34,479 bases of DNA from Bdellovibrionota bacterium FG-2 (lineage in GTDB: Bacteria > Bdellovibrionota > UBA1018): positions 1 through 34,479 of the forward strand of contig JBBCAV010000053.1 of the NCBI GenBank assembly GCA_051382305.1, in the 5' to 3' direction. Position 1 is the first letter of the stretch. Each line of letters starts with the position of its first letter. The notes beneath the pieces are model-generated. The model was not told the origin of the DNA and made no database searches. It saw only the letters and a list, made by a program, of their open reading frames with translations. Positions 18,513-27,875 of the stretch are shown piece after piece. A program made the position numbers and the translations under genes.

Positions 18513-20306
18513 CTAAGGCTCTAGCTTTCTCTCAAACTGGATTTTGACCTCTTTTGCCAGATGATTGCTGCGATACGTGCACTCAAAGGGTAAGAAGGTT
18601 TTCTCGAAAGGAAATCCCGTACATTGTAGCAGGAGGTCGAATTTTTCCGAACCTTGAATCATTTGACCGGTTCCATTGAGAGTTTGTGTATCTCGGTCCC
18701 ACCGGGCCGGATCAAATACCAATGTGATCTCTGAAGGCTTGTGGTTGAGCGTTGCAAGAGTAACCGAAACCTGCAGGTTTCGCTCTGAAGGTGGAAAGAA
18801 AAGTTCCGAAATATCTTCGGTACGAGAGCGGGACTGAAAAGTTGCGTTGAGCGTGGCCACAACACTGAGTCCTTCAGGCAGTACGGCTTTCCCCTGGAAG
18901 CTTTGAGTTTGGGTTAGCGACAGGGGTGGGTGCAGTACTGAGTCCGGGGGTGTGCTTCCATCGAGTGGGGCGGCGGAGGCTGCCGAAAACTGGCCCTCGG
19001 CAATCGAGCCACCTTTGCTGGTAAAATGTTTGCAGTACCAGGAGGCAACCGTGGCGCTTTGATCGCGCTTGCAGTCAACGCGAAGTTCAACCTTTTGCGT
19101 TTGAAGAGAATAGCTTCCTGACAGAGTACCAGCTTCGCGATTGTAATGAACGCTTTCCAATAAAATGGGGTAAGATCCGTTTAAGGTAAAGCTTGCGGAA
19201 ACCGTTTGGTTTGCATTCGGGAAAAATAGCTCCGTTAACAATGACTGCTGGTCTTTGCGCGGATAGAGAATGCGAAAATCTGCCGAACGGGATTCTCCAT
19301 TTGCAAATTTCAATTGGCCTTTAAAGTTTTCGTCCCGAGAAGCAAGATCGAGTCCATCACCAGGCGCGGTTTCATTGTTTGAGGCGACAACTTTGGTTGT
19401 TGCGACCCATCCCATGGCGCCACTAAGGTGTTGGCAGGTCCAGGCAGGGTCAGTTGGAGTAATCCCTTGTTTGCAATCGAGTAGGAGATTGACCTTTTCG
19501 GTATCTCTTGTGAGTACCGTTTGCCCCGTTAGGGTTCCGACGCGCTGATCCCATTGTGCGCTTGCGTGAGAAATCACGATGGAGTCGCCATAGTTTAGCC
19601 CCACTTCAACTGTTTTTACGGGGTAAAACAGCGATAGGAATTCTTCTTCTGAGGTTCGTCGTGGATCCAAGATGACAAAATTTACCGCAAGCGTCTCACC
19701 GCTTTTGAACTCCGTGGTTCCGATGAAAGATCTCTGCCTGAGACTGAGGGCGGAATCCACGGCCTGAGTATTTGAGTCGGGCTTTTGCGCGCCCGCGCTC
19801 CCGGCTGGATTTGTACCTCCGCGGGACAATGAAAATGTCCCTCCGAAATCAGGCTGGCCCAAGGCTTCAATCGTACCCGTGAATGAATCCCCTTGGATGT
19901 TTCCCGTCAAGGTGAGTTGTTCTGTCGTTCCTGATGAGCGCACAATAGGGATATTCGCCTGAAATTTTCCCGACGTGGGGTCATAATAACTATCCTTGGC
20001 TACGGCAACGAGGGTTTGACGTCCCGTGAAGGTAAGGTTTCCCACGAGGACGGGTTGTTCGTCGGCTTTCGATACTCCGGGGGCCGTGCTGACTTGCGTT
20101 TTTGCGGCTAGAGAAAACTTCAGATCGCCCAAAACGGACTGATCAATGACCGAAGTCACTTGGCCGACATATTCGCCATCGACGGTTTGGAGCTTTCCTA
20201 AGTCCTGCTGGGTTTTTTCGCGTTTCCAATCCTCAAGGGTCCGGTCTTTCGCACAGCCAAGGCCGAAAACGGCTAAAATCATGAATATACCTATTTGTGT
20301 TTTCAT
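18513..20306 (-). CDS. Hypothetical lipoprotein with three ~120-aa internal repeats
   Basis: Signal with lipobox GLGC (Cys18), beta-rich, repeats at about aa 191-306, 325-440 and 467-591. GGAGG RBS; 1 nt from the upstream stop. Confidence 0.8.
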   Translation of the reverse strand: MKTQIGIFMILAVFGLGCAKDRTLEDWKREKTQQDLGKLQTVDGEYVGQVTSVIDQSVLGDLKFSLAAKTQVSTAPGVSKADEQPVLVGNLTFTGRQTLVAVAKDSYYDPTSGKFQANIPIVRSSGTTEQLTLTGNIQGDSFTGTIEALGQPDFGGTFSLSRGGTNPAGSAGAQKPDSNTQAVDSALSLRQRSFIGTTEFKSGETLAVNFVILDPRRTSEEEFLSLFYPVKTVEVGLNYGDSIVISHASAQWDQRVGTLTGQTVLTRDTEKVNLLLDCKQGITPTDPAWTCQHLSGAMGWVATTKVVASNNETAPGDGLDLASRDENFKGQLKFANGESRSADFRILYPRKDQQSLLTELFFPNANQTVSASFTLNGSYPILLESVHYNREAGTLSGSYSLQTQKVELRVDCKRDQSATVASWYCKHFTSKGGSIAEGQFSAASAAPLDGSTPPDSVLHPPLSLTQTQSFQGKAVLPEGLSVVATLNATFQSRSRTEDISELFFPPSERNLQVSVTLATLNHKPSEITLVFDPARWDRDTQTLNGTGQMIQGSEKFDLLLQCTGFPFEKTFLPFECTYRSNHLAKEVKIQFERKLEP

Positions 20307-20307
20307 C

Positions 20308-21000
20308 TTAGAGAACCTCCATTCGAATTCCTGCTAATATTCCTACACCCTCTAATCCAGACAATCCGCCCACGCGCTGTGGAATGGGAACGACAGCGCC
20401 CCCTCCGAGAGTCAAAAAGGATTGAGAAACGCCAACCGCTTGAAGGTTCAAGGGGAGGTTTCCCTGGATTCCGGTCTTAATCATGGCGGAAATTCCAAAA
20501 TCAGAAGCGGCGGATCCCAAAGCTGAGCTTGCGGCGCTGATCATCGTGGGCTGCAGGCTGGCCGAGGCAAAGCTGCTGAGTCTTTTGTAGCTCAATCTTC
20601 TGGGCTTGATCTCTAACCCTACCCCGAGAGAAGTTATGCTGACGTTTTGGCTCACAATCGAGGCGTTTAGCGCCGCCTGGCGTTCCAGGAGAGAATAGGA
20701 AACCTCTGCGATCCATCGGAGTTCTTCGGACGAGGTTTTTGAAAGAAGGGGCAGAAGGCTGATTGAAAGTGGTGGCATCGTTGCCGATTGAAAGCTTGTG
20801 GTGCCCGCGATTTGCGTCGGCCATACTAATTGGGCGGGGGTAAAGTTTGTTGTCGAAATTTGAACTGCCAAAGTGGCAGCAGTCTGCTCTCGGCGTGGCT
20901 TCGAAGCAGACGATAAGTTCAGTTCACTCTTAGGAATAACAAGTTCAGAGGCTGCGAGGCTAGTTTGTGAGATTAGGACTAACAAAATGAGCATTTTCAT
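20308..21000 (-). CDS. Exported hypothetical protein, possible small outer-membrane beta-barrel
   Basis: Signal peptide MKMLILLVLISQTSLA; alternating strands (LGVGLEI, FASASL, ILAGIRMEV); ATGA overlap with the upstream gene. Confidence 0.65.
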   Translation of the reverse strand: MKMLILLVLISQTSLAASELVIPKSELNLSSASKPRREQTAATLAVQISTTNFTPAQLVWPTQIAGTTSFQSATMPPLSISLLPLLSKTSSEELRWIAEVSYSLLERQAALNASIVSQNVSITSLGVGLEIKPRRLSYKRLSSFASASLQPTMISAASSALGSAASDFGISAMIKTGIQGNLPLNLQAVGVSQSFLTLGGGAVVPIPQRVGGLSGLEGVGILAGIRMEVL

Positions 21001-22745
21001 GAAGGGGCTCCTTGGAGGATGGGGACGAGGTGATCTAGGGAAATTCCGGTCGCGACGCCATACTGTTTGATGGCGTCAATATAGTTAAATTGAGCCTGGT
21101 CGAGTGCCGACTGCGCTTGGAGATAGGATTGCTCGACGGAGAGCAGCTGCAAAAAATCAGTCATCGCAAGTTTGTAGTTTCGTTTGGCTTCGTCCAGTGT
21201 TTTTTTAGCCAGTTCAAATGAAGTCTTCGCTGTTCCTATTTGTTCCCAGGCAAGATCCAGACTTTTTCGTGCGCGGATTTGCGAAAGCGAGAGCGTGGTC
21301 TCTAAATCAGCGCGTTGGGCTGCGATTTGGGCAGTTTGGGAATCGAAGTTTCGCCTTTCATAAACGGAGCTCAAGCCACTAAAAAGGGGAATTGAGAGTT
21401 GAACGCCCAGGGTCCAGGTAGTTGCGGTTCCATCAAAAAGTTCGCTCTTTGTATAGGCAGATCGACCCCAGTCGGCGGTTGCGAGAAGTTGTGGCAGATG
21501 CTTGCCCATGGCGACATTACGTTGCTCATCAACTTTGAGCGCCGAAACGGTGAGTTTTTCAAGCTCTGGGAGGCGAGTGGAAGTCGATTCTAACTGTTTT
21601 AGAAGCGCGGGGAGGGCGGGGATCGAAAAGTGAGAGGTCACATCCAAGGTCTCGGCACGCGTCTCGTTGATGAGGGAGGCGAGTTCCGAAACTGCGATTT
21701 GTAGCTGGGTGCGCGCACTATCAATGTTGCCGGAGAGCAGGGATAATTGCGTCTTAGCTTGGAGAACATCAAGGAGTTGTCCCCGTCCAATTTGATAGCG
21801 CTTTTCAGCCGTAGCTAGGGTCTCTTTTTGAATCACGTTACTTTGATTTAACGTATCGAGCTTTCGCTTTTGAAGAATGAGATTGAAAAAGGCGGTAATG
21901 ACCGAGGACTTAATCGCGCGCTCCGTAAGCGTGACGTCCAAGGAGGCCAAGTCTCGATCGTCGCGTGCCTGACTAATCGCTGCAAACATTCCTGAATAGT
22001 ACAGGGGCTGTGCCGCGTGAAGTCCTATAGCATACTGATTATAAGCTTCGCCGTCAAAGCGAGGTGTCCCTACATTTGAGGCATCTTTTTTATAAAGCGA
22101 GGACCCTTGCGCCGCAAGGGTCGGTAGGAGCTGTGAATACGGTGCGCCGGCTAGAACCTCGGTCTGAGCCAGTTTTTCCTGTGCTAATTTTAGGGAGGGC
22201 AAAGAGCCCAGGGCTCTTGTTATGGCTTGCGTAAGGGTAAGCGGCGCTTCGGCCGGCGCGCCCGAAGGCGCGGCCCAGGCGGTAGGCCCCGAAAAACTCA
22301 GTGTAAAATAAATGAGAGCAAGTACGGGGAAAATTTCTCGCAAGGCTCTGAGGCCCTTTTCGAGGGCCTGTTTTTGAGAAGGTGCAATCTGTGAAAAATG
22401 AAAATTAAGATTTTGGCAGGCATTTTCTCGAATCATGGTAATTTTAGAAAGGCCGTTCTTGGTGAGTGTGAGATGGTTTTTGCGACGGTCTTTTTTGTCT
22501 TGGATTTGAGTCACGAGATCTTGTTTTTTTAAGCCTTCTAAGAGGCGAGAGAGCGTAGGCGTGCTGACTCCGATGTTTTCGGCGAGCTCCGTTTGCGTGA
22601 GAGTCTTTTCAGCAAGGTTAGCGAGGAGGCGAAACTGGAGTAGCGTGAGATTTGCGCGCGGAACTTCGCGCATTTTCGAGCGAATAACTGACATTGCCCG
22701 CGGAATGGCATCCAAAAACTCTTCGGCAATATTTGAATCTTGCAT
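20997..22745 (-). CDS. In-frame fusion: MarR-family regulator + signal-like segment + TolC family outer-membrane efflux protein
   Basis: N-terminal MarR (LTLLQFRLL, LTQTELAENIGVSTPTLSRLL, DKKDRR..LTLT..G), then IFPVLALIYFTLSFSGPTAWA-AP, then two OEP repeats (LLPTL, QPLY, KRYQIGRGQLLDVLQA, LPQL, GVQLSIPLFSG). No stop between domains. ATG 22745 chosen as start. Confidence 0.85.
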   Translation of the reverse strand: MQDSNIAEEFLDAIPRAMSVIRSKMREVPRANLTLLQFRLLANLAEKTLTQTELAENIGVSTPTLSRLLEGLKKQDLVTQIQDKKDRRKNHLTLTKNGLSKITMIRENACQNLNFHFSQIAPSQKQALEKGLRALREIFPVLALIYFTLSFSGPTAWAAPSGAPAEAPLTLTQAITRALGSLPSLKLAQEKLAQTEVLAGAPYSQLLPTLAAQGSSLYKKDASNVGTPRFDGEAYNQYAIGLHAAQPLYYSGMFAAISQARDDRDLASLDVTLTERAIKSSVITAFFNLILQKRKLDTLNQSNVIQKETLATAEKRYQIGRGQLLDVLQAKTQLSLLSGNIDSARTQLQIAVSELASLINETRAETLDVTSHFSIPALPALLKQLESTSTRLPELEKLTVSALKVDEQRNVAMGKHLPQLLATADWGRSAYTKSELFDGTATTWTLGVQLSIPLFSGLSSVYERRNFDSQTAQIAAQRADLETTLSLSQIRARKSLDLAWEQIGTAKTSFELAKKTLDEAKRNYKLAMTDFLQLLSVEQSYLQAQSALDQAQFNYIDAIKQYGVATGISLDHLVPILQGAPS

Positions 22746-22777
22746 TGGGTTGTGTATGCAGCATTTTGTTGTGTTTG

Positions 22778-22804
22778 GCAATGATTAACATTGGTAATCA
22801 TTGC
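22778..22804. promoter_or_regulatory. Perfect 10-bp inverted repeat, candidate operator between divergent tolC-like genes
   Basis: GCAATGATTA-ACATTGG-TAATCATTGC. It abuts TTGACG (22805-22810, + strand) and overlaps TTGCCA (22776-22781, - strand). Confidence 0.65.
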
Positions 22805-22841
22805 TTGACGTTTTGCGGGGGGGCCGGTAAAAGGGGCCGGC

Positions 22842-24224
22842 ATGAAAATTCGTTTGAACGCGACACCATTGTTCCTCGGGATAATCTGTGGGCTAATATT
22901 TGGGCTTACCTCGGGCTGTCGCCCAAGTGAGGTTTTGCCCCCAGGGTGCGCCCCCGAGGGCATCACGTTGACCTCCGCAGGTGCCTCAAATGAGGCCTCA
23001 TCGGATGACACTCCTTTTGTTTTGAATCCCGATTCTCTGCGCGATGAAGTTTTGATTAAGAACACAGGCCTCATGCTTGCGGCGAATAACGTGCATCGGG
23101 CGAAAGATAGTGTTTCGATCGCGCGGGGGAACTTGCTCCCCTCCCTTAATCTTGGGGCATTGCTTTATTCGACAACGCAGAGGTCTTTTGTGCTTTCCTC
23201 AGTCGAGGCGGTTCTTCCTTTTTTGGTTCCTTCTAAATGGTTTGATTATTACAAATCCAAGCATCTGTTGTCGGCGGAAATTGGGAGCTTGGACATTATG
23301 CGGGCCAACACTTTTGCCTCAGCCCTTGCTTTGTATTTTACGAGTTTAGGAGACCTGGGATTAAGGGAACTCCTTTTTGAGGAGGCCACTGACCTGGCAG
23401 AGATTGAAGATTTTACGGAATTGGCTTTTCAAGCAGGCGTGGGCTCAGAAGAGGACTATTTGCGAGTCAAGGCGCAAAGGGCGATGGCACAGGTTTCGGC
23501 TTCGAAGCTTGACGAACTTCTAGGGGCGGAGAAGGCAATGATCCGGCATGCCTTGAGGCTGGGCTCTGAGCGTGAGATTCAAATTGAAGCTTACTCGATG
23601 AGTCCCTCTGAATGGGAATTCAAGCCTGTACAGGAGCTGGCTGATCAGGCGCTTCTCCGATCCTTGGAACGGGGTCAACTTGAAGACCTGGAAAAGGCCG
23701 CGAAACTTGATCGCTGGAGCAAGATATTTGGTTTTGTGAGTGCGGCAGGGTTAAGGACGGCGCCGGGCACCGGTGGAGCGGCTTCATTTAGTAACGTTTA
23801 TGCGTCTGAGAGTTTTTCTATCGGATTTGCTAACGTTCCTACGGTTCATCTTTCTCAACGCAATATTGATGAAATCCGTATTCGCGAGACGGAGATTCCG
23901 GCCGAACTGTTGGAAGTGAGTGAAACAAATTTAGGGTCCTTAGTGCAAGGGGCGCAACGTGAAGCGCTGGCACGTGAGGCGTGGGATGCTTTATATCATG
24001 TTGTTGAGACCAAACGCCTGCAGTTCCTCTCAGGGGTTGGAGGGATTGTGCCGTTCTTACAAGCCCGCTCGCAATTGAGACAGGCGGGCATCGAGGTGTT
24101 ACGTGCGCAGATTTTGCTCACCCAGGATCGGATTGTATTGCACCGGATTCTTCGGACCGATCTGTTTGAGAAGATTCCGAGTTGCATGCCGTCTAAAGCG
24201 GCTGCGACAGCTCATCCTGCTTAA
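22842..24224 (+). CDS. Divergent TolC/outer-membrane efflux family protein, probable lipoprotein
   Basis: Lipobox LTSGC; OEP-like features ARGNLLPSLNL, FQAGVGSEEDYLRVKA and QFLSGVGGIVPFLQAR. Confidence 0.72.
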   Translation: MKIRLNATPLFLGIICGLIFGLTSGCRPSEVLPPGCAPEGITLTSAGASNEASSDDTPFVLNPDSLRDEVLIKNTGLMLAANNVHRAKDSVSIARGNLLPSLNLGALLYSTTQRSFVLSSVEAVLPFLVPSKWFDYYKSKHLLSAEIGSLDIMRANTFASALALYFTSLGDLGLRELLFEEATDLAEIEDFTELAFQAGVGSEEDYLRVKAQRAMAQVSASKLDELLGAEKAMIRHALRLGSEREIQIEAYSMSPSEWEFKPVQELADQALLRSLERGQLEDLEKAAKLDRWSKIFGFVSAAGLRTAPGTGGAASFSNVYASESFSIGFANVPTVHLSQRNIDEIRIRETEIPAELLEVSETNLGSLVQGAQREALAREAWDALYHVVETKRLQFLSGVGGIVPFLQARSQLRQAGIEVLRAQILLTQDRIVLHRILRTDLFEKIPSCMPSKAAATAHPA

Positions 24225-27200
24225 GGCTTGCTAGCGCCTCTTTAAGTTCCTTTTGGTGTTTCGTGCCTTCCAGTCGTGAGAGCAAACTGTAGGCGCAAGG
24301 TACGACGATCAAAGTCAGTACCGTCGATAAGATGACTCCACCGATTACGACGATGGCCATGGGGCGCGTGGTTTCAGCCCCAGGGCCCAGGGCAAAGGCG
24401 GCGGGCACCGCCGCCGTCACGGTTGCCACTGACGTCATAAGAATGGGGCGCAACCGAAGGGGGCACGCGTGTAGGAGCGCGTCTTTGACGGCCTTCCCCG
24501 CCACCCTTTGGTGATTGGTGAAATCCACGAGCAGAATCGAATTCTTCTTTACGATGCCCATCAACAATAGCAGCCCAATCATACTATAGATGTTTAGAGA
24601 AATTCCACTCAAGCGCATGGCGATGAAGGCCCCGGTCACACTAAAGGGGAGAGCTAGAAGAATGGTCACCGGTTGGAGGAAACTATTGAATTGTGCGCCT
24701 AGGACCATGTAGGCCACAAAAATGCCCAAAACCAGGGCAAGAATGAGACTCTGGAAAGACTCTTTGAAGGCCTGGGAGTTTCCGGAGAGAACGACGTGAT
24801 AATCTGTGGGGAGAATTTCTTTAGCCGTTTTGTCGATAAATTCCATGGCTTGGGCTTGCGATTTGCCGGGGGTGACGTTGGCAAAAATCGAGACGGCTCG
24901 CTCGCGATTATAACGGCTGATGGTGAGCAGTGTGGGCTGCTCTTTAAGCGTGACCACTTCGGAGAGCTGGACCATTTCGCCGTGGTTGTTTCTCACCCAA
25001 ATTCGGCCGATATCGTCAGGACGGCGGTTGAATTCATCAAGCAGTTTAACTCGGATATCATCTCGGTGGCCGGAGGAATCCGTATAGCGTCCGACGCGTA
25101 AACTTCCCATCAGGGCACTAATGGTGTCGGCAATTTTTTGGATCGTGACTCCACGGGCGGCGGCTTTGACGCGATCAGGGACGACGCGCACCTCGGGCAT
25201 GTTGGGTTTGTAGTCAGTATCCACATCGGTCATCAACCCTGAGCCGTTCATCTTATCCATCATGGATTTGCTGTACTCCGCGATTTTTTCCCAATGGGGT
25301 CCTTGAATCGAGAAAGTAACGGGAAATCCGCGTGAAGAAGTGAATCCCGCTAGCGAAAGATCCATAACCGTGGCGCGCTTGACACCTGGGATTTTTGCGA
25401 GCAGAGAGCGTGCTACACCCATGAATTCTTGCTGAGTGGGGCGCGTTTTAAAGGGTTCCACAATGGGGCGATTTTTGGGATCCTTGAGATTCACGAACAT
25501 GTTGCCTGAATTGACGAGCCCCCCTTGAAAACCGCCGATGGCTACAAAGAAACCATCGACTTCAGGTCGGGCTTTCATCAATTTTTCCGCTTCACGAAAG
25601 GCGGCATCCGTTGCCTCAAGCGATGAGCCTAGGGGCATTTGCAGCGTGACCAAGAATCTGCTTTGATCTTGGGGCGGGACAAATTCTTTTCGAACATCAC
25701 CCAAAAGAAAAAGCGATCCACCAAAGAGCGCGCATGAAGCAATGACGATTTTCCATCGATGATTTAGGCAAACGGCAAGAATACGTCGGTAGGTATTTGC
25801 CATCCAGCTGAGCAGTCGGTCCATATTGCGGCCCAGAAGTCCCATGTCGCCCTGTTTCGCCGTGCTAAGGAACTGGGAGCAGCGCATGGGGGCTAAGGTC
25901 AAGGCTTCAAGAAGTGAGAGCGCGACGGCGACGGACATTGCAATTCCGAATTGATAAAAGAATTTCCCAATGACGCCTTTCATGAAAACGACCGGGACAA
26001 AGATTGCAAGAATAGCTAAGGAGGCGGCGGTGGCCGCGCCGGTGATCTCGCGGGCGCCGACCAGAGCCGCTTTTACACGGCTCATTCCTGATTCATGATG
26101 ACGAACAATGTTTTCCAACACCATGATCGCGTCATCCACGACGATGCCGATGGACAGAGATAGCGCGAGCAACGTGAAGCTGTTGATCGTGAATCCTAGA
26201 AAATAGAGCGCGATGAAGGCGCCAATCAAAGAGGTAGGGATGGCTAAGATGACGTTGAACGCTGAACTCCAAGAGCCTAGAAACAGGTAGCACACGACCG
26301 AGGTGAGAAGCGCGGATAACCCTAGCGTAAAAAGAAGTTCCTTAGTGGAGTCTTCGATAAATTTGGTGGTATCCACAACGGTGGTGAGTTTCATTCCGCC
26401 GGGTAGAAGGTCTTTAAGCTGTTTGATCTTGAGTTTGACTGCTGAGCCGACTGAGACAGCGTTGGAGCCTCGCTGTTTGAGAATACCCAAGCCCACCGCA
26501 GGCTCGCTGTTTGAACGGGAAATCCTCCTGATGTCAGCCAATCCTTCTTCGACTTTGCCAAGTTCTCCGATGCGGATGGGCCGCCAGATAGGGGCGCCAC
26601 TGCGAGCAGGAATCACAAGGTCTCGAACGGCATCCGCGCTGGTGGTTTCGCCCATGACGCGAATATTGGTTTCCTTGGGGCCGTCATTCATGAAACCCGA
26701 AGGCGAAAGGATGTTGCCAGTTATAAGCGCACTCGTGACGTCGTCGACGGCGATTTCGCGCTTACGCATTTCGTTGACGTTGAGCCAGATACGCATATTG
26801 GGATCGACATAGCCACCGAGTCTGACGTCGCCCACGCCACTGACGGTGGTAATCATGTCTTTAAGACGATCGCGGACGAACAGAGTTTTCTCACGCAAAG
26901 TGTTGGGGCCACTGAGCGTGACCCACATGATGGGTTGGTCTTCAGGGTTGGATTTTGTCACTGTGGGTGGGTCAATGTCGGTGGGGAGATTGCGTTGGGC
27001 TTGCGCGATTTTGGTTTGAACTTCTTGGACAGCAACATCGATATTGCGGCTGAGTTCAAATTCAATGGAGGTGGAGGAGGAGCCCTCTTGGCAGTTTGAA
27101 GTGACGGAGCGAATGCCTTCGATGCTCATCACGGCGTTTTCGATGACATCGGCAACGGCAAGCTCCATGGTTTCTGGGGAGGCGCCGACCCAATTGACAG

Positions 27201-27342
27201 ACACTGTGAGAACGGGAAAATCGACGTCAGGAAGTTGACTAATGCCCATCCGCAGAAAGCTGATTGTGCCAAAGACAATGAGCCCGATCATGAGCATCCA
27301 GGCAAAAACGGGTCTTCGAATGGAGATGTCTGAAAGGGTCAT
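24193..27342 (-). CDS. RND efflux transporter permease (AcrB/AcrD/AcrF family)
   Basis: SIRRPVFA, PDVDFP, GIVVDDAIMVLENI (proton relay), GIVKKNSILLVD and RLRPILMTS. About 1049 aa from the ATG at 27342. Confidence 0.95.
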   Translation of the reverse strand: MTLSDISIRRPVFAWMLMIGLIVFGTISFLRMGISQLPDVDFPVLTVSVNWVGASPETMELAVADVIENAVMSIEGIRSVTSNCQEGSSSTSIEFELSRNIDVAVQEVQTKIAQAQRNLPTDIDPPTVTKSNPEDQPIMWVTLSGPNTLREKTLFVRDRLKDMITTVSGVGDVRLGGYVDPNMRIWLNVNEMRKREIAVDDVTSALITGNILSPSGFMNDGPKETNIRVMGETTSADAVRDLVIPARSGAPIWRPIRIGELGKVEEGLADIRRISRSNSEPAVGLGILKQRGSNAVSVGSAVKLKIKQLKDLLPGGMKLTTVVDTTKFIEDSTKELLFTLGLSALLTSVVCYLFLGSWSSAFNVILAIPTSLIGAFIALYFLGFTINSFTLLALSLSIGIVVDDAIMVLENIVRHHESGMSRVKAALVGAREITGAATAASLAILAIFVPVVFMKGVIGKFFYQFGIAMSVAVALSLLEALTLAPMRCSQFLSTAKQGDMGLLGRNMDRLLSWMANTYRRILAVCLNHRWKIVIASCALFGGSLFLLGDVRKEFVPPQDQSRFLVTLQMPLGSSLEATDAAFREAEKLMKARPEVDGFFVAIGGFQGGLVNSGNMFVNLKDPKNRPIVEPFKTRPTQQEFMGVARSLLAKIPGVKRATVMDLSLAGFTSSRGFPVTFSIQGPHWEKIAEYSKSMMDKMNGSGLMTDVDTDYKPNMPEVRVVPDRVKAAARGVTIQKIADTISALMGSLRVGRYTDSSGHRDDIRVKLLDEFNRRPDDIGRIWVRNNHGEMVQLSEVVTLKEQPTLLTISRYNRERAVSIFANVTPGKSQAQAMEFIDKTAKEILPTDYHVVLSGNSQAFKESFQSLILALVLGIFVAYMVLGAQFNSFLQPVTILLALPFSVTGAFIAMRLSGISLNIYSMIGLLLLMGIVKKNSILLVDFTNHQRVAGKAVKDALLHACPLRLRPILMTSVATVTAAVPAAFALGPGAETTRPMAIVVIGGVILSTVLTLIVVPCAYSLLSRLEGTKHQKELKEALASLKQDELSQPL

Positions 27343-27350
27343 TAGTAACG

Positions 27351-27875
27351 CTAGGAAATCTTCGAATCTGTAGAATTCGAAGCGTATTCCAAATCCCATT
27401 TCATAAACGCTTTGACGAAGTCTGCTTCGGTGAGAATTCCGACGAGGGTCTTCCCATCGACCACGGGAAGGCAGCCGTACTTTTGATGAAACATCAGGTC
27501 GGCCGCGACTCTTAAGGGCATGTCGGGAGACGCGGATTTTAGATTCTTGCCCATGATCGTGTGAACTTTAACGCTTCGGTAGAGGGCTTCGGCCTCTTCG
27601 GCATCAAATGCGGCTAGTCGGGAAATGGCCAGCTTCAGAAAATCACGATGGGTCACTAAGCCCACGAGGCGTCCGGTCGCATTGATGATGGGGATATGTC
27701 GGATAGCTTTCCAATTAAAAAGGTCTTCGACGTCTTTGAGGCAATTTTCCTCAGACAGCGTAAGCGGCGCAGGCGTCATGAGGTCTCGAACTAAAGGGGT
27801 AAGAGAGGAGAATGTGGGAACTTTTTTTGCTTTATTTGCCACGACGCGCGTCTTTTTCTTCGAGGGTTTGGCCAT
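27351..27875 (-). CDS. CBS domain pair protein
   Basis: VRDLMT, IRHIPII..GRLVGLVTHRD and GCLPVVD..LVGILTEAD. Lies 8 nt upstream of the RND gene. Confidence 0.9.
   Translation of the reverse strand: MAKPSKKKTRVVANKAKKVPTFSSLTPLVRDLMTPAPLTLSEENCLKDVEDLFNWKAIRHIPIINATGRLVGLVTHRDFLKLAISRLAAFDAEEAEALYRSVKVHTIMGKNLKSASPDMPLRVAADLMFHQKYGCLPVVDGKTLVGILTEADFVKAFMKWDLEYASNSTDSKIS

Follow-up and report, generated by a model that had tools for sequence, protein, structure and literature searches.

In-frame fusion of a MarR regulator to a TolC-type outer membrane channel through a signal-peptide-like junction in Bdellovibrionota bacterium FG-2, and similar joins in its relatives

We analyzed a stretch of 34,479 nucleotides (nt) from the uncultured Bdellovibrionota bacterium FG-2 (GenBank assembly GCA_051382305.1, contig JBBCAV010000053.1, positions 1 to 34,479; referred to here as the window), in which the gene for a MarR-family transcriptional regulator runs on, without a stop codon, into the gene for a TolC-type outer membrane channel. 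At the DNA level, this MarR-TolC fusion is real. On balance, we favor the reading that it is a recent, lineage-specific, in-frame fusion of marR with the downstream tolC, and that it represents a tolerated, self-resolving accident and not a long-kept design. This reading builds on four observations: the open reading frame (ORF) itself, how it originated, how such joins recur, and the fact that relatives conserve internal TolC signals. We refer to the genome of the window as G000 and to its MarR-TolC fused protein as P0001.

The minus strand from 22745 to 20997 forms a single frame that starts with ATG, encodes 582 amino acids (aa), and contains no internal stops. An alternative upstream TTG at 22781 would give a 594-aa version; the MarR of G001, a genome from the same genus, begins at the equivalent ATG instead. 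The 582-aa protein consists of a complete MarR (residues 1 to 139), a signal-like stretch (h-region, residues 138 to 151; site AWA158/A159), and a complete TolC, in this order.

22329 to 22745, minus strand: MarR domain (residues 1 to 139), six-helix and complete (Pfam; 78% identity over residues 1 to 139 to the 141-aa stand-alone MarR of G001; AlphaFold and Foldseek).
22272 to 22343, minus strand: signal-peptide-like junction (residues 135 to 158) (sequence; hydrophobicity peak; correspondence to the TolC signal of G001; low predicted local distance difference test [pLDDT] scores).
21000 to 22271, minus strand: mature TolC/outer membrane factor (OMF) part (residues 159 to 582), with the stop codon at 20997 to 20999 (two OEP repeats; TIGR01844; 77 to 78% identity to the TolC of G001; Foldseek).

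Both halves were recognized by profile searches. Pfam (PF01047/PF12802) placed a winged helix at residues 32 to 89 above the gathering score (MarR_2, residues 32 to 88, E = 4.8e-12, 46.3 bits versus a cutoff of 27; MarR, residues 33 to 89, E = 1.9e-9, 37.7 bits versus 24.6). The MarR part is of full length, as residues 1 to 139 align end to end with stand-alone MarRs of 138 to 154 aa, and the model shows the entire fold, about 140 aa long, in which helices at both ends (4 to 27 through 122 to 147) flank the winged helix-turn-helix (wHTH). NCBIfam gave weak similarity of this half to MprA and SlyA, with no curated equivalog model reached. The TolC half contains the tandem OEP repeats (PF02321) as two stretches from residue 171 (E = 1.5e-41; 142.7 bits versus a cutoff of 22), and residues 168 to 567 matched positions 2 to 398 of the 414 in the NCBIfam TolC model TIGR01844. 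The score for the latter (109.9 bits) was below the curated cutoff for the TolC type I secretion subfamily (225.15), and the TolC half is therefore a member of the broad OMF family only, in a distant subfamily.

The AlphaFold model of the fused protein (32-row alignment) had a mean pLDDT of 90.5, and values below 50 were confined to residues 144 to 162; the last MarR helix (residues 122 to 147) continues into the hydrophobic stretch. In Foldseek comparisons, the TolC half had the TolC protomer fold of beta-barrel strands and long alpha-hairpins, with matches that include TolC, OprM, CmeC, and VceC (template modeling [TM] scores by target of 0.75 for Escherichia coli TolC 1ek9_A, 0.78 for 7ng9_A, and 0.84 for 9j3d_A), and the MarR half matched Rv0880 (4yif_C; TM score by target of 0.82 over 142 columns). 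The original prediction, made from the letters alone, had described one ORF holding a MarR wHTH, a hydrophobic segment ending in an AxA site (REIFPVLALIYFTLSFSGPTAWA followed by AP; residues 136 to 160), and a TolC; the frame, the Pfam matches, and the model bear out this description in every detail.

By sequence, the segment between the two halves looks like a cleavable signal peptide. It opens with an in-frame TTG (L135, 22341 to 22343) and the charged residues R136 and E137, and continues with the h-region (I138 to F151) and the c-region SGPTAWA, with a predicted cut after A158. The h-region IFPVLALIYFTLSF is the most hydrophobic stretch of the fused protein (the 15-aa Kyte-Doolittle window from residue 138 is the maximum), and it is followed by a small-x-small site, SGPTAWA158/A159P, with small residues at positions -3 and -1 (AWA). 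The TolC part thus lacks an N-terminal signal peptide of its own, the signal-like segment being located at residues 135 to 158, behind MarR. Within this segment there is no ATG or GTG, and the sole candidate start is TTG135.

22354 to 22360, minus strand: AAAAGGG, resembling a ribosome-binding site (RBS), 10 nt 5' of TTG135; might mark an independent tolC start (motif inspection).

Comparable motifs are located ahead of further starts in the window (aaaagggg before 22842, aagggga before 2552, and aaggag before 21000), and G001 carries GAGAGTGGA at the position equivalent to AAAAGGG.

The origin of the fusion is visible in the comparison with G001, which has separate marR and tolC genes, 77 to 78% identical to G000 in both halves. 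In G001, marR ends with REIFPS and TGA, and tolC begins with ATG followed by MTFSSKIGLIAIFTHALAIAAQA (MTFSSK...); the stop and the start overlap by 4 nt as ATGA. The junction signal of G000 corresponds to this TolC signal, and the parts missing in G000 relative to G001 are the marR stop, the tolC ATG, and the MTFSSK n-region. The distance from a conserved Pro codon to the AxA site is 54 nt in G000 versus 71 nt in G001 (net 17 nt shorter); the signal region is too diverged between the two genomes for the exact event to be reconstructed. We suggest that the ancestral marR stop overlapped the tolC start (ATGA) and that G000 lost both codons, along with the charged beginning of the TolC signal peptide, through a small net deletion. 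The last MarR helix now feeds directly into the hydrophobic core of the signal.

Tight junctions are common among the relatives. We sampled 15 MarR loci, found in 14 of 75 genomes of the family. At nine of the 15 loci, marR overlaps the next gene by 4 nt (six tolC or tolC-like genes and three acrB genes); the remaining six comprise two with a lipoprotein gene after a short spacer, one at a contig edge, and three that are fused. In another family of the phylum, marR-tolC junctions range from an 11-nt overlap to an 8-nt gap. Given the overlaps at nine of 15 family loci and in G001, the spacer-free junction is the ancestral state and carries no sign of design. The original prediction had taken the lack of a spacer as evidence against a simple lost stop codon; this argument fails, since relatives have no spacer anyway. 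Separate marR and tolC genes in close relatives had been named beforehand as the outcome that would count against the original prediction, and this is what we found: G001 is unfused, and among the 42 MarR rows from the order, long frames are present only in G000, G017, and G054. We regard the fusion as lineage specific and recent.

The junction was checked against a second assembly. A Logan contig (record 3 of public run X1) spans 22218 to 23000 with 0 differences, 0 gaps, and a word depth of about 8, and this one contig takes in the complete MarR part together with the junction, the signal, and the beginning of TolC (to residue 176). Over 22300 to 22400, where the original prediction had proposed that reads be mapped, the contig from the second assembler is identical. 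Two other explanations of the junction were considered and discarded. A one-base assembly error in the AAATTTTCCCC run of the homopolymer-rich junction leaves no workable alternative gene model, the hydrophobic core sharing its frame with both MarR and TolC; the +1 frame at the junction stops at 22298 to 22300, leaving tolC without a start. A programmed frameshift in the same run has no in-frame X XXY YYZ heptamer, and the shifted frames yield no workable tolC start.

To learn how widely the MarR+OEP architecture occurs, we scanned 1.84 billion representative sequences using HMMER with residues 1 to 230 as the query. The scan gave 2,253 matches at E values of ≤0.001, of which the best 150 were examined; because the query held the start of TolC, their ranking favored fused forms. 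The best 150 of 2,253 contained six more MarR+OEP proteins of 547 to 604 aa (P0046, P0047, P0050, P0059, P0064, and P0119), a truncated fused form (P0117), a MarR-lipoprotein (P0041), P0176 (described below), the TolC of G001, and 140 stand-alone MarRs (116 to 227 aa). Pfam confirmed MarR and OEP in all seven fused forms. Five of the six full-length proteins align in one stretch over the junction into TolC, and P0064 aligns only to query residue 161; P0050 has 579-aa members on three contigs. The fused forms have a common junction style, in which a ...GLxxLxxIF helix leads straight into the hydrophobic core, followed by a small-x-small site. The database search that the original prediction had proposed thus added six full-length proteins and one truncated protein. 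Searches among near relatives with the whole protein and with residues 1 to 160 found MarR+OEP only in P0001 itself, a misleading blank in light of the HMMER scan. All 30 of the 30 ESM Atlas matches were OEP only, and a locus search with a 4-row MarR alignment gave four loci (Oligoflexia and Bdellovibrionia metagenome-assembled genomes [MAGs]) and no new fusions.

Fused rows account for three of the 15 MarR loci in the family and three of the 42 MarR rows in the order. Across 401 sampled genomes of the phylum there were 78 MarR rows with five long frames, four of which are true: G000, G017 and G054 (MarR-lipoprotein), and G410 (MarR-TolC, 552 aa). The fusion in G410 amounts to a single substitution, TAA to AAA (GTA TAA ATG in G361, of the same genus, versus GTT AAA ATG in G410), and its TolC retains its own Met and an RBS-like GAGG. 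The fifth, a 482-aa frame on contig C9 of G294, is a false positive: its extra length lies ahead of MarR, in GC-rich sequence, and marR has its own stop. At this locus (L032, 3051 to 4262), a 403-aa ORF mimics an N-terminally extended MarR through GC-rich read-through upstream of the real marR start. The ORF overlaps a 243-aa exported ORF on the same strand, and such cases are a trap for fusion counts by open-frame length.

A maximum-likelihood TolC tree was prepared from 39 sequences (P0117, being truncated, and P0041 and P0176, being without TolC, were left out). The eight fused rows show zero clustering and need eight changes, at least six of which are forced by well-supported branches. P0001, P0064, P0059, and G410 are each located beside or among unfused relatives at 100% support: P0001 pairs with unfused G001, P0064 with unfused G005 (62% identical TolC), and P0059 with unfused G052b, and G410 lies inside an unfused genus. 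P0059 and P0117 were also considered as a possible old fused clade, a grouping that the identities do not support (P0059 is 43% identical to P0117 versus 47% to the unfused G052b TolC). As the eight fused rows need eight changes, MarR-TolC joins are, by this phylogeny, recurrent, tip-level, independent events in Bdellovibrionota. Placement at tips is more in keeping with accidents that are tolerated than with a regulatory design that is maintained. The uniform junction style may reflect survivorship, because only indels and stop losses between the last MarR helix and the hydrophobic core would spare both halves.

Other fusions of the same kind are longer lived. Nine of the 36 TolC-orthologue rows in the order sit in frames of >700 aa. 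Of these nine, seven are from as many species of genus g31, which has eight (in the remaining one, a contig start truncates the locus), and the other two are from G023 and G018, which belong to two other families. An AcrB-family resistance-nodulation-division (RND) pump and TolC occur as one frame of about 1,480 to 1,555 aa in G036:C181, G039:C14, G037:C53, G040:C17, and G035:C101 (L040 to L044), G023:C11 (L006), and G018:C163 (L010). At all seven of the AcrB-TolC junctions that were read, the cytoplasmic AcrB C terminus is followed, in the same frame, by a hydrophobic stretch that carries an AxA-type site and, after it, by mature TolC, and the g31 junctions (5 of 5 read) have neither a stop nor a Met before the hydrophobic core. 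Because the AcrB-TolC frame is kept genus-wide in g31, the internal TolC signal evidently works there, and a TolC signal behind a cytoplasmic C terminus seems compatible with long-term function in the order. AcrB-TolC precursors appear to be the strongest example of a TolC signal as an internal linker. Natural RND-OMF single-chain precursors are not known to have been described, although no literature search aimed at them was made. Further long frames among the TolC-search rows were G002:C34 (1,483 aa) and G011:C232 (1,343 aa).

In genus g17 and its metagenomic relatives, a 15-aa linker joins MarR to the lipoprotein of the operon (lipobox ...LSSC).

Locus L009, 1595 to 2959 (G017): MarR-lipoprotein fusion.
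Locus L019, 3 to 1100 (G054): MarR-lipoprotein fusion.
Proteins P0041 to P0045: MarR-lipoprotein fusions.

The MarR-lipoprotein frame is kept in six sequences down to 58% identity, and the linker is free of indels and stops. The lipoprotein retains its own Met, and the invariant linker E-R is encoded by the RBS-like GAAAGG in G017. P0176 (362 aa) consists of MarR, a hydrophobic stretch ending in a lipobox-like ...SAHAC, and about 200 residues without a Pfam match at an E value of ≤1e-5; it is a third kind of exported partner behind this MarR group.

As for export, cleavage, the fate of MarR, and use of an internal start, we infer the following course of events. Translation from the ATG at 22745 would give a MarR-signal-TolC precursor. 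Positive charges of the last MarR helix (K130, R133, and R136) would hold MarR in the cytoplasm, the signal would insert with its N terminus in and its C terminus out, the 14-residue core would engage Sec, and the TolC part would be translocated. Signal peptidase I would then cut after A158 (AWA158), and normal mature TolC would take its usual route to the outer membrane. MarR would keep about 20 hydrophobic residues at its C terminus and would stay at the inner membrane for as long as it retains this tail and escapes degradation. In known MarR structures, the C terminus belongs to the dimerization region, on the side away from the DNA-binding wings; a tethered MarR could therefore still bind DNA. 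A separate TolC made from the in-frame TTG135 is also possible; the product would begin with MREIFPVLALIYFTLSFSGPTAWA. G000 encodes signal peptidase I (two matches above the cutoff) and an RseP-type site-2 protease. The part of the original prediction in which signal peptidase releases TolC holds up as the most plausible fate of the precursor (signal-like junction, signal peptidase I in G000, and genus-wide internal signals in AcrB-TolC), with cleavage itself standing as a prediction. In such a scheme, the joins would arise repeatedly in the phylum because the marR-tolC junction is so tight and would survive because the precursors resolve themselves.

The fused ORF heads an operon and shares its promoter region with a divergent gene.

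20308 to 21000, minus strand: 230-aa exported ORF, whose start overlaps the tolC stop by 4 nt; same operon (same order in G001; homologue in G015).
18513 to 20306, minus strand: 597-aa lipoprotein (MKTQIGIFMILAVFGLGC...), last gene of the operon (homologues in G001, G015, and G017; its relatives are the partner in the MarR-lipoprotein fusions).
22842 to 24224, plus strand: divergent, weakly OEP-like gene, 460 aa, sharing the promoter region (Pfam OEP, E = 1.9e-5, 25 bits; no NCBIfam match).
24193 to 27399, minus strand: RND transporter (AcrB family), a neighboring efflux component (Pfam ACR_tran, E = 1.6e-268).
22778 to 22804, no strand: 13-nt inverted repeat GCAATGATTAACA/TGGTAATCATTGC, 92% complementary, with 1 nt between the arms (33 to 59 nt upstream of the marR ATG, in the divergent promoter region).

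The 230-aa exported protein and the 597-aa lipoprotein had no Pfam or NCBIfam match; the same exported partners recur beside tolC in G001, G015, and G017. A gene for a periplasmic adaptor (membrane fusion protein) was not among the 16 window ORFs scanned, which are part of the ORFs of the window, and an AcrB gene is present. The 597-aa lipoprotein might stand in for the adaptor. MarR-family proteins bind palindromic operators as homodimers, usually in their own promoters. The inverted repeat is nearly identical in G001 while its flanks diverge, and it is a candidate MarR operator. Relative-rate comparisons with G001 gave no sign of acceleration in either half. Unique sites numbered 11 to 18 in G000 versus 14 to 20 in G001 for TolC, and 2 to 8 versus 1 to 4 for MarR, where the counts give little power. 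Given the even rates and a palindrome that has hardly changed between G000 and G001, both MarR and its candidate operator still look functional.

Several points weigh against the favored reading. The small MarR counts limit the power of the rate comparison, and the TolC tree comes from a quick search with unfused rows that were picked by the author among relatives. The internal-start element is a guess from a motif, by which TTG135 may serve as a separate TolC start. One public run (X1) contains the window sequence, as Logan contigs, with no RNA run among the listed holders; X1 may consist of the same reads as the source of the window; furthermore, bases 22196 to 22217 are present in no listed Logan piece, a break that no contig bridges. 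That the joins recur, and that MarR-lipoprotein and AcrB-TolC fusions are long lived, could just as well be a sign of selection in favor of such fusions. The continuity of the frame across 22196 to 22217 is taken from in-frame homology to the TolC of G001 on both sides. The break itself covers 22 bases in a GC-rich stretch with GGCGCGCC and could be due to low depth or strain variation.

A first alternative is an adaptive polyprotein, favored by selection, in which one repressor is made per exported channel, MarR is handed to the membrane as the "signal peptide" of the channel, and proteolysis makes repression report on export. The same layout arose many times, the MarR-lipoprotein frame has been kept in its six sequences (to 58% identity, with a 15-aa linker without indels or stops), the AcrB-TolC frame extends through a genus, an RseP-type protease is encoded in G000, and the operator and MarR look intact. 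Nevertheless, same-genus G001 is unfused, all eight MarR-TolC fusions on the tree are tips with unfused neighbors, survivorship alone would yield the uniform junction style, and the partners in G410 and the g17 clade keep their own start and an RBS-like motif, so 1:1 coupling is not enforced there. We consider this explanation unlikely. The original prediction had likewise tied repressor level to channel export; no result supports such coupling, and the tips suit tolerated accidents better. A broader version is somewhat more doubtful still: the TolC signal peptide would be a natural self-cutting linker behind operon partners with a cytoplasmic end (for MarR, this lineage and at least seven more; for AcrB, a whole genus), the "signal peptide" that cleavage leaves in the inner membrane would be an entire transcription factor, and release or destruction of this MarR by intramembrane proteolysis would make efflux repression a readout of the amount of channel exported. 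A second alternative is an allele that weakens the repressor by dragging MarR to the membrane or destabilizing it, so that the operon is derepressed and the allele is favored under toxic stress. Loss-of-function mutations in marR, mexR, and emrR are precedents for weakened efflux repressors. The tip-level, recurrent, short-lived pattern is as expected from recurrent loss-of-function selection, and TolC would still be producible via the internal signal or TTG135. Against this, the MarR of G000 has no excess of changes relative to G001 (at low power), the operator is conserved, MarR is still conserved in the long-lived MarR-lipoprotein fusions, and repressor loss should come about much more often by a simple frameshift or an early stop codon; we hold this explanation to be improbable.

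Two further explanations do without a functional fusion, and we give little credence to either. In one, the locus is dead, with both halves inactivated and decaying while other TolC paralogues take over. G000 does carry other TolC-like genes (on C141, C236, C133, and C319), but the 582 codons are without a stop or frameshift, neither half has an accelerated rate, both domains fold with high confidence in the model, and the downstream genes are still tightly coupled. In the other, an assembly or consensus error, or a strain chimera, erased a stop and start present in the living cell. The window is contig C53 of a fragmented MAG (433 contigs; 85% complete), the depth is only about 8 in a single run, and the Logan contigs break at 22196 to 22217. 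However, the second assembler reproduces the junction exactly, a 1-nt error in the AAATTTTCCCC run leaves no workable gene model, homology to G001 is in frame on either side, and the same layout is present in independent genomes and contigs. A tolerated accident that resolves itself remains the reading we favor.

The MarR-TolC fusion is a variant of the known MarR-regulated efflux operon, and neither of its parts is unusual as a member of the MarR or OMF family. In E. coli emrR/mprA-emrAB and marRAB, a MarR-family autorepressor is the first gene of an efflux operon. Here, too, MarR is at the operon head with a palindrome in its own promoter and efflux components downstream; unlike in those operons, the repressor has no stop codon and runs on into an exported channel. 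As in the TolC/OMF family (1ek9, OprM, CmeC, and VceC), there are two OEP repeats, a full protomer fold, and a cleavable-looking signal before the mature part, but the signal is internal, 134 residues from the N terminus, and has lost its own Met and n-region. The Bradyrhizobium cytochrome b-c1 precursor FbcH is a polyprotein split by signal peptidase at an internal signal. P0001 similarly holds two functional proteins as one chain with an internal signal, their separation being predicted only. The halves of FbcH are subunits of one membrane complex and their fusion is fixed, whereas those of P0001 are destined for different compartments and their fusion is sporadic.

Membrane-integrated one-component regulators of the ToxR/CadC type combine a cytoplasmic winged helix, one hydrophobic segment, and a periplasmic part (PMC7888679 and PMC6320335). 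They provide a precedent for membrane-held regulators that find DNA. P0001 does not belong to this type, which has an OmpR-type wHTH, a stable anchor, and an attached sensor. Its DNA-binding family is MarR; its outer membrane channel must be cut off, whereas the periplasmic sensor of ToxR/CadC stays attached; and its 14-aa core has the length of a signal peptide, not of an anchor, and is followed by an AxA site. A literature search at the level of listings and abstracts, with subscription journals outside its coverage, returned no paper on a fusion of MarR to an OMF or to another exported protein, and feedback of efflux repression by a readout of the exported channel was likewise not described in the papers searchable at that level.

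Processing of the precursor as proposed would mean that a bacterial signal peptide can be a built-in separator that makes fusions between cytoplasmic and exported neighbors nearly harmless, which would explain the repeated appearance of MarR-TolC, MarR-lipoprotein, and AcrB-TolC joins. It would also be a caution to annotators not to split or discard such frames as errors. The fusion offers a natural test case for how far from the N terminus a bacterial signal still works and for the fate of a folded protein on a cleaved signal peptide; the genus-wide AcrB-TolC precursors may be a more robust test system for internal signals. If the fusion is selected, it would represent a new way to couple a repressor to export of the product that it controls. 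The MarR-TolC fusion is of moderate interest alone and of higher interest within the wider pattern of the TolC signal peptide as an internal linker.

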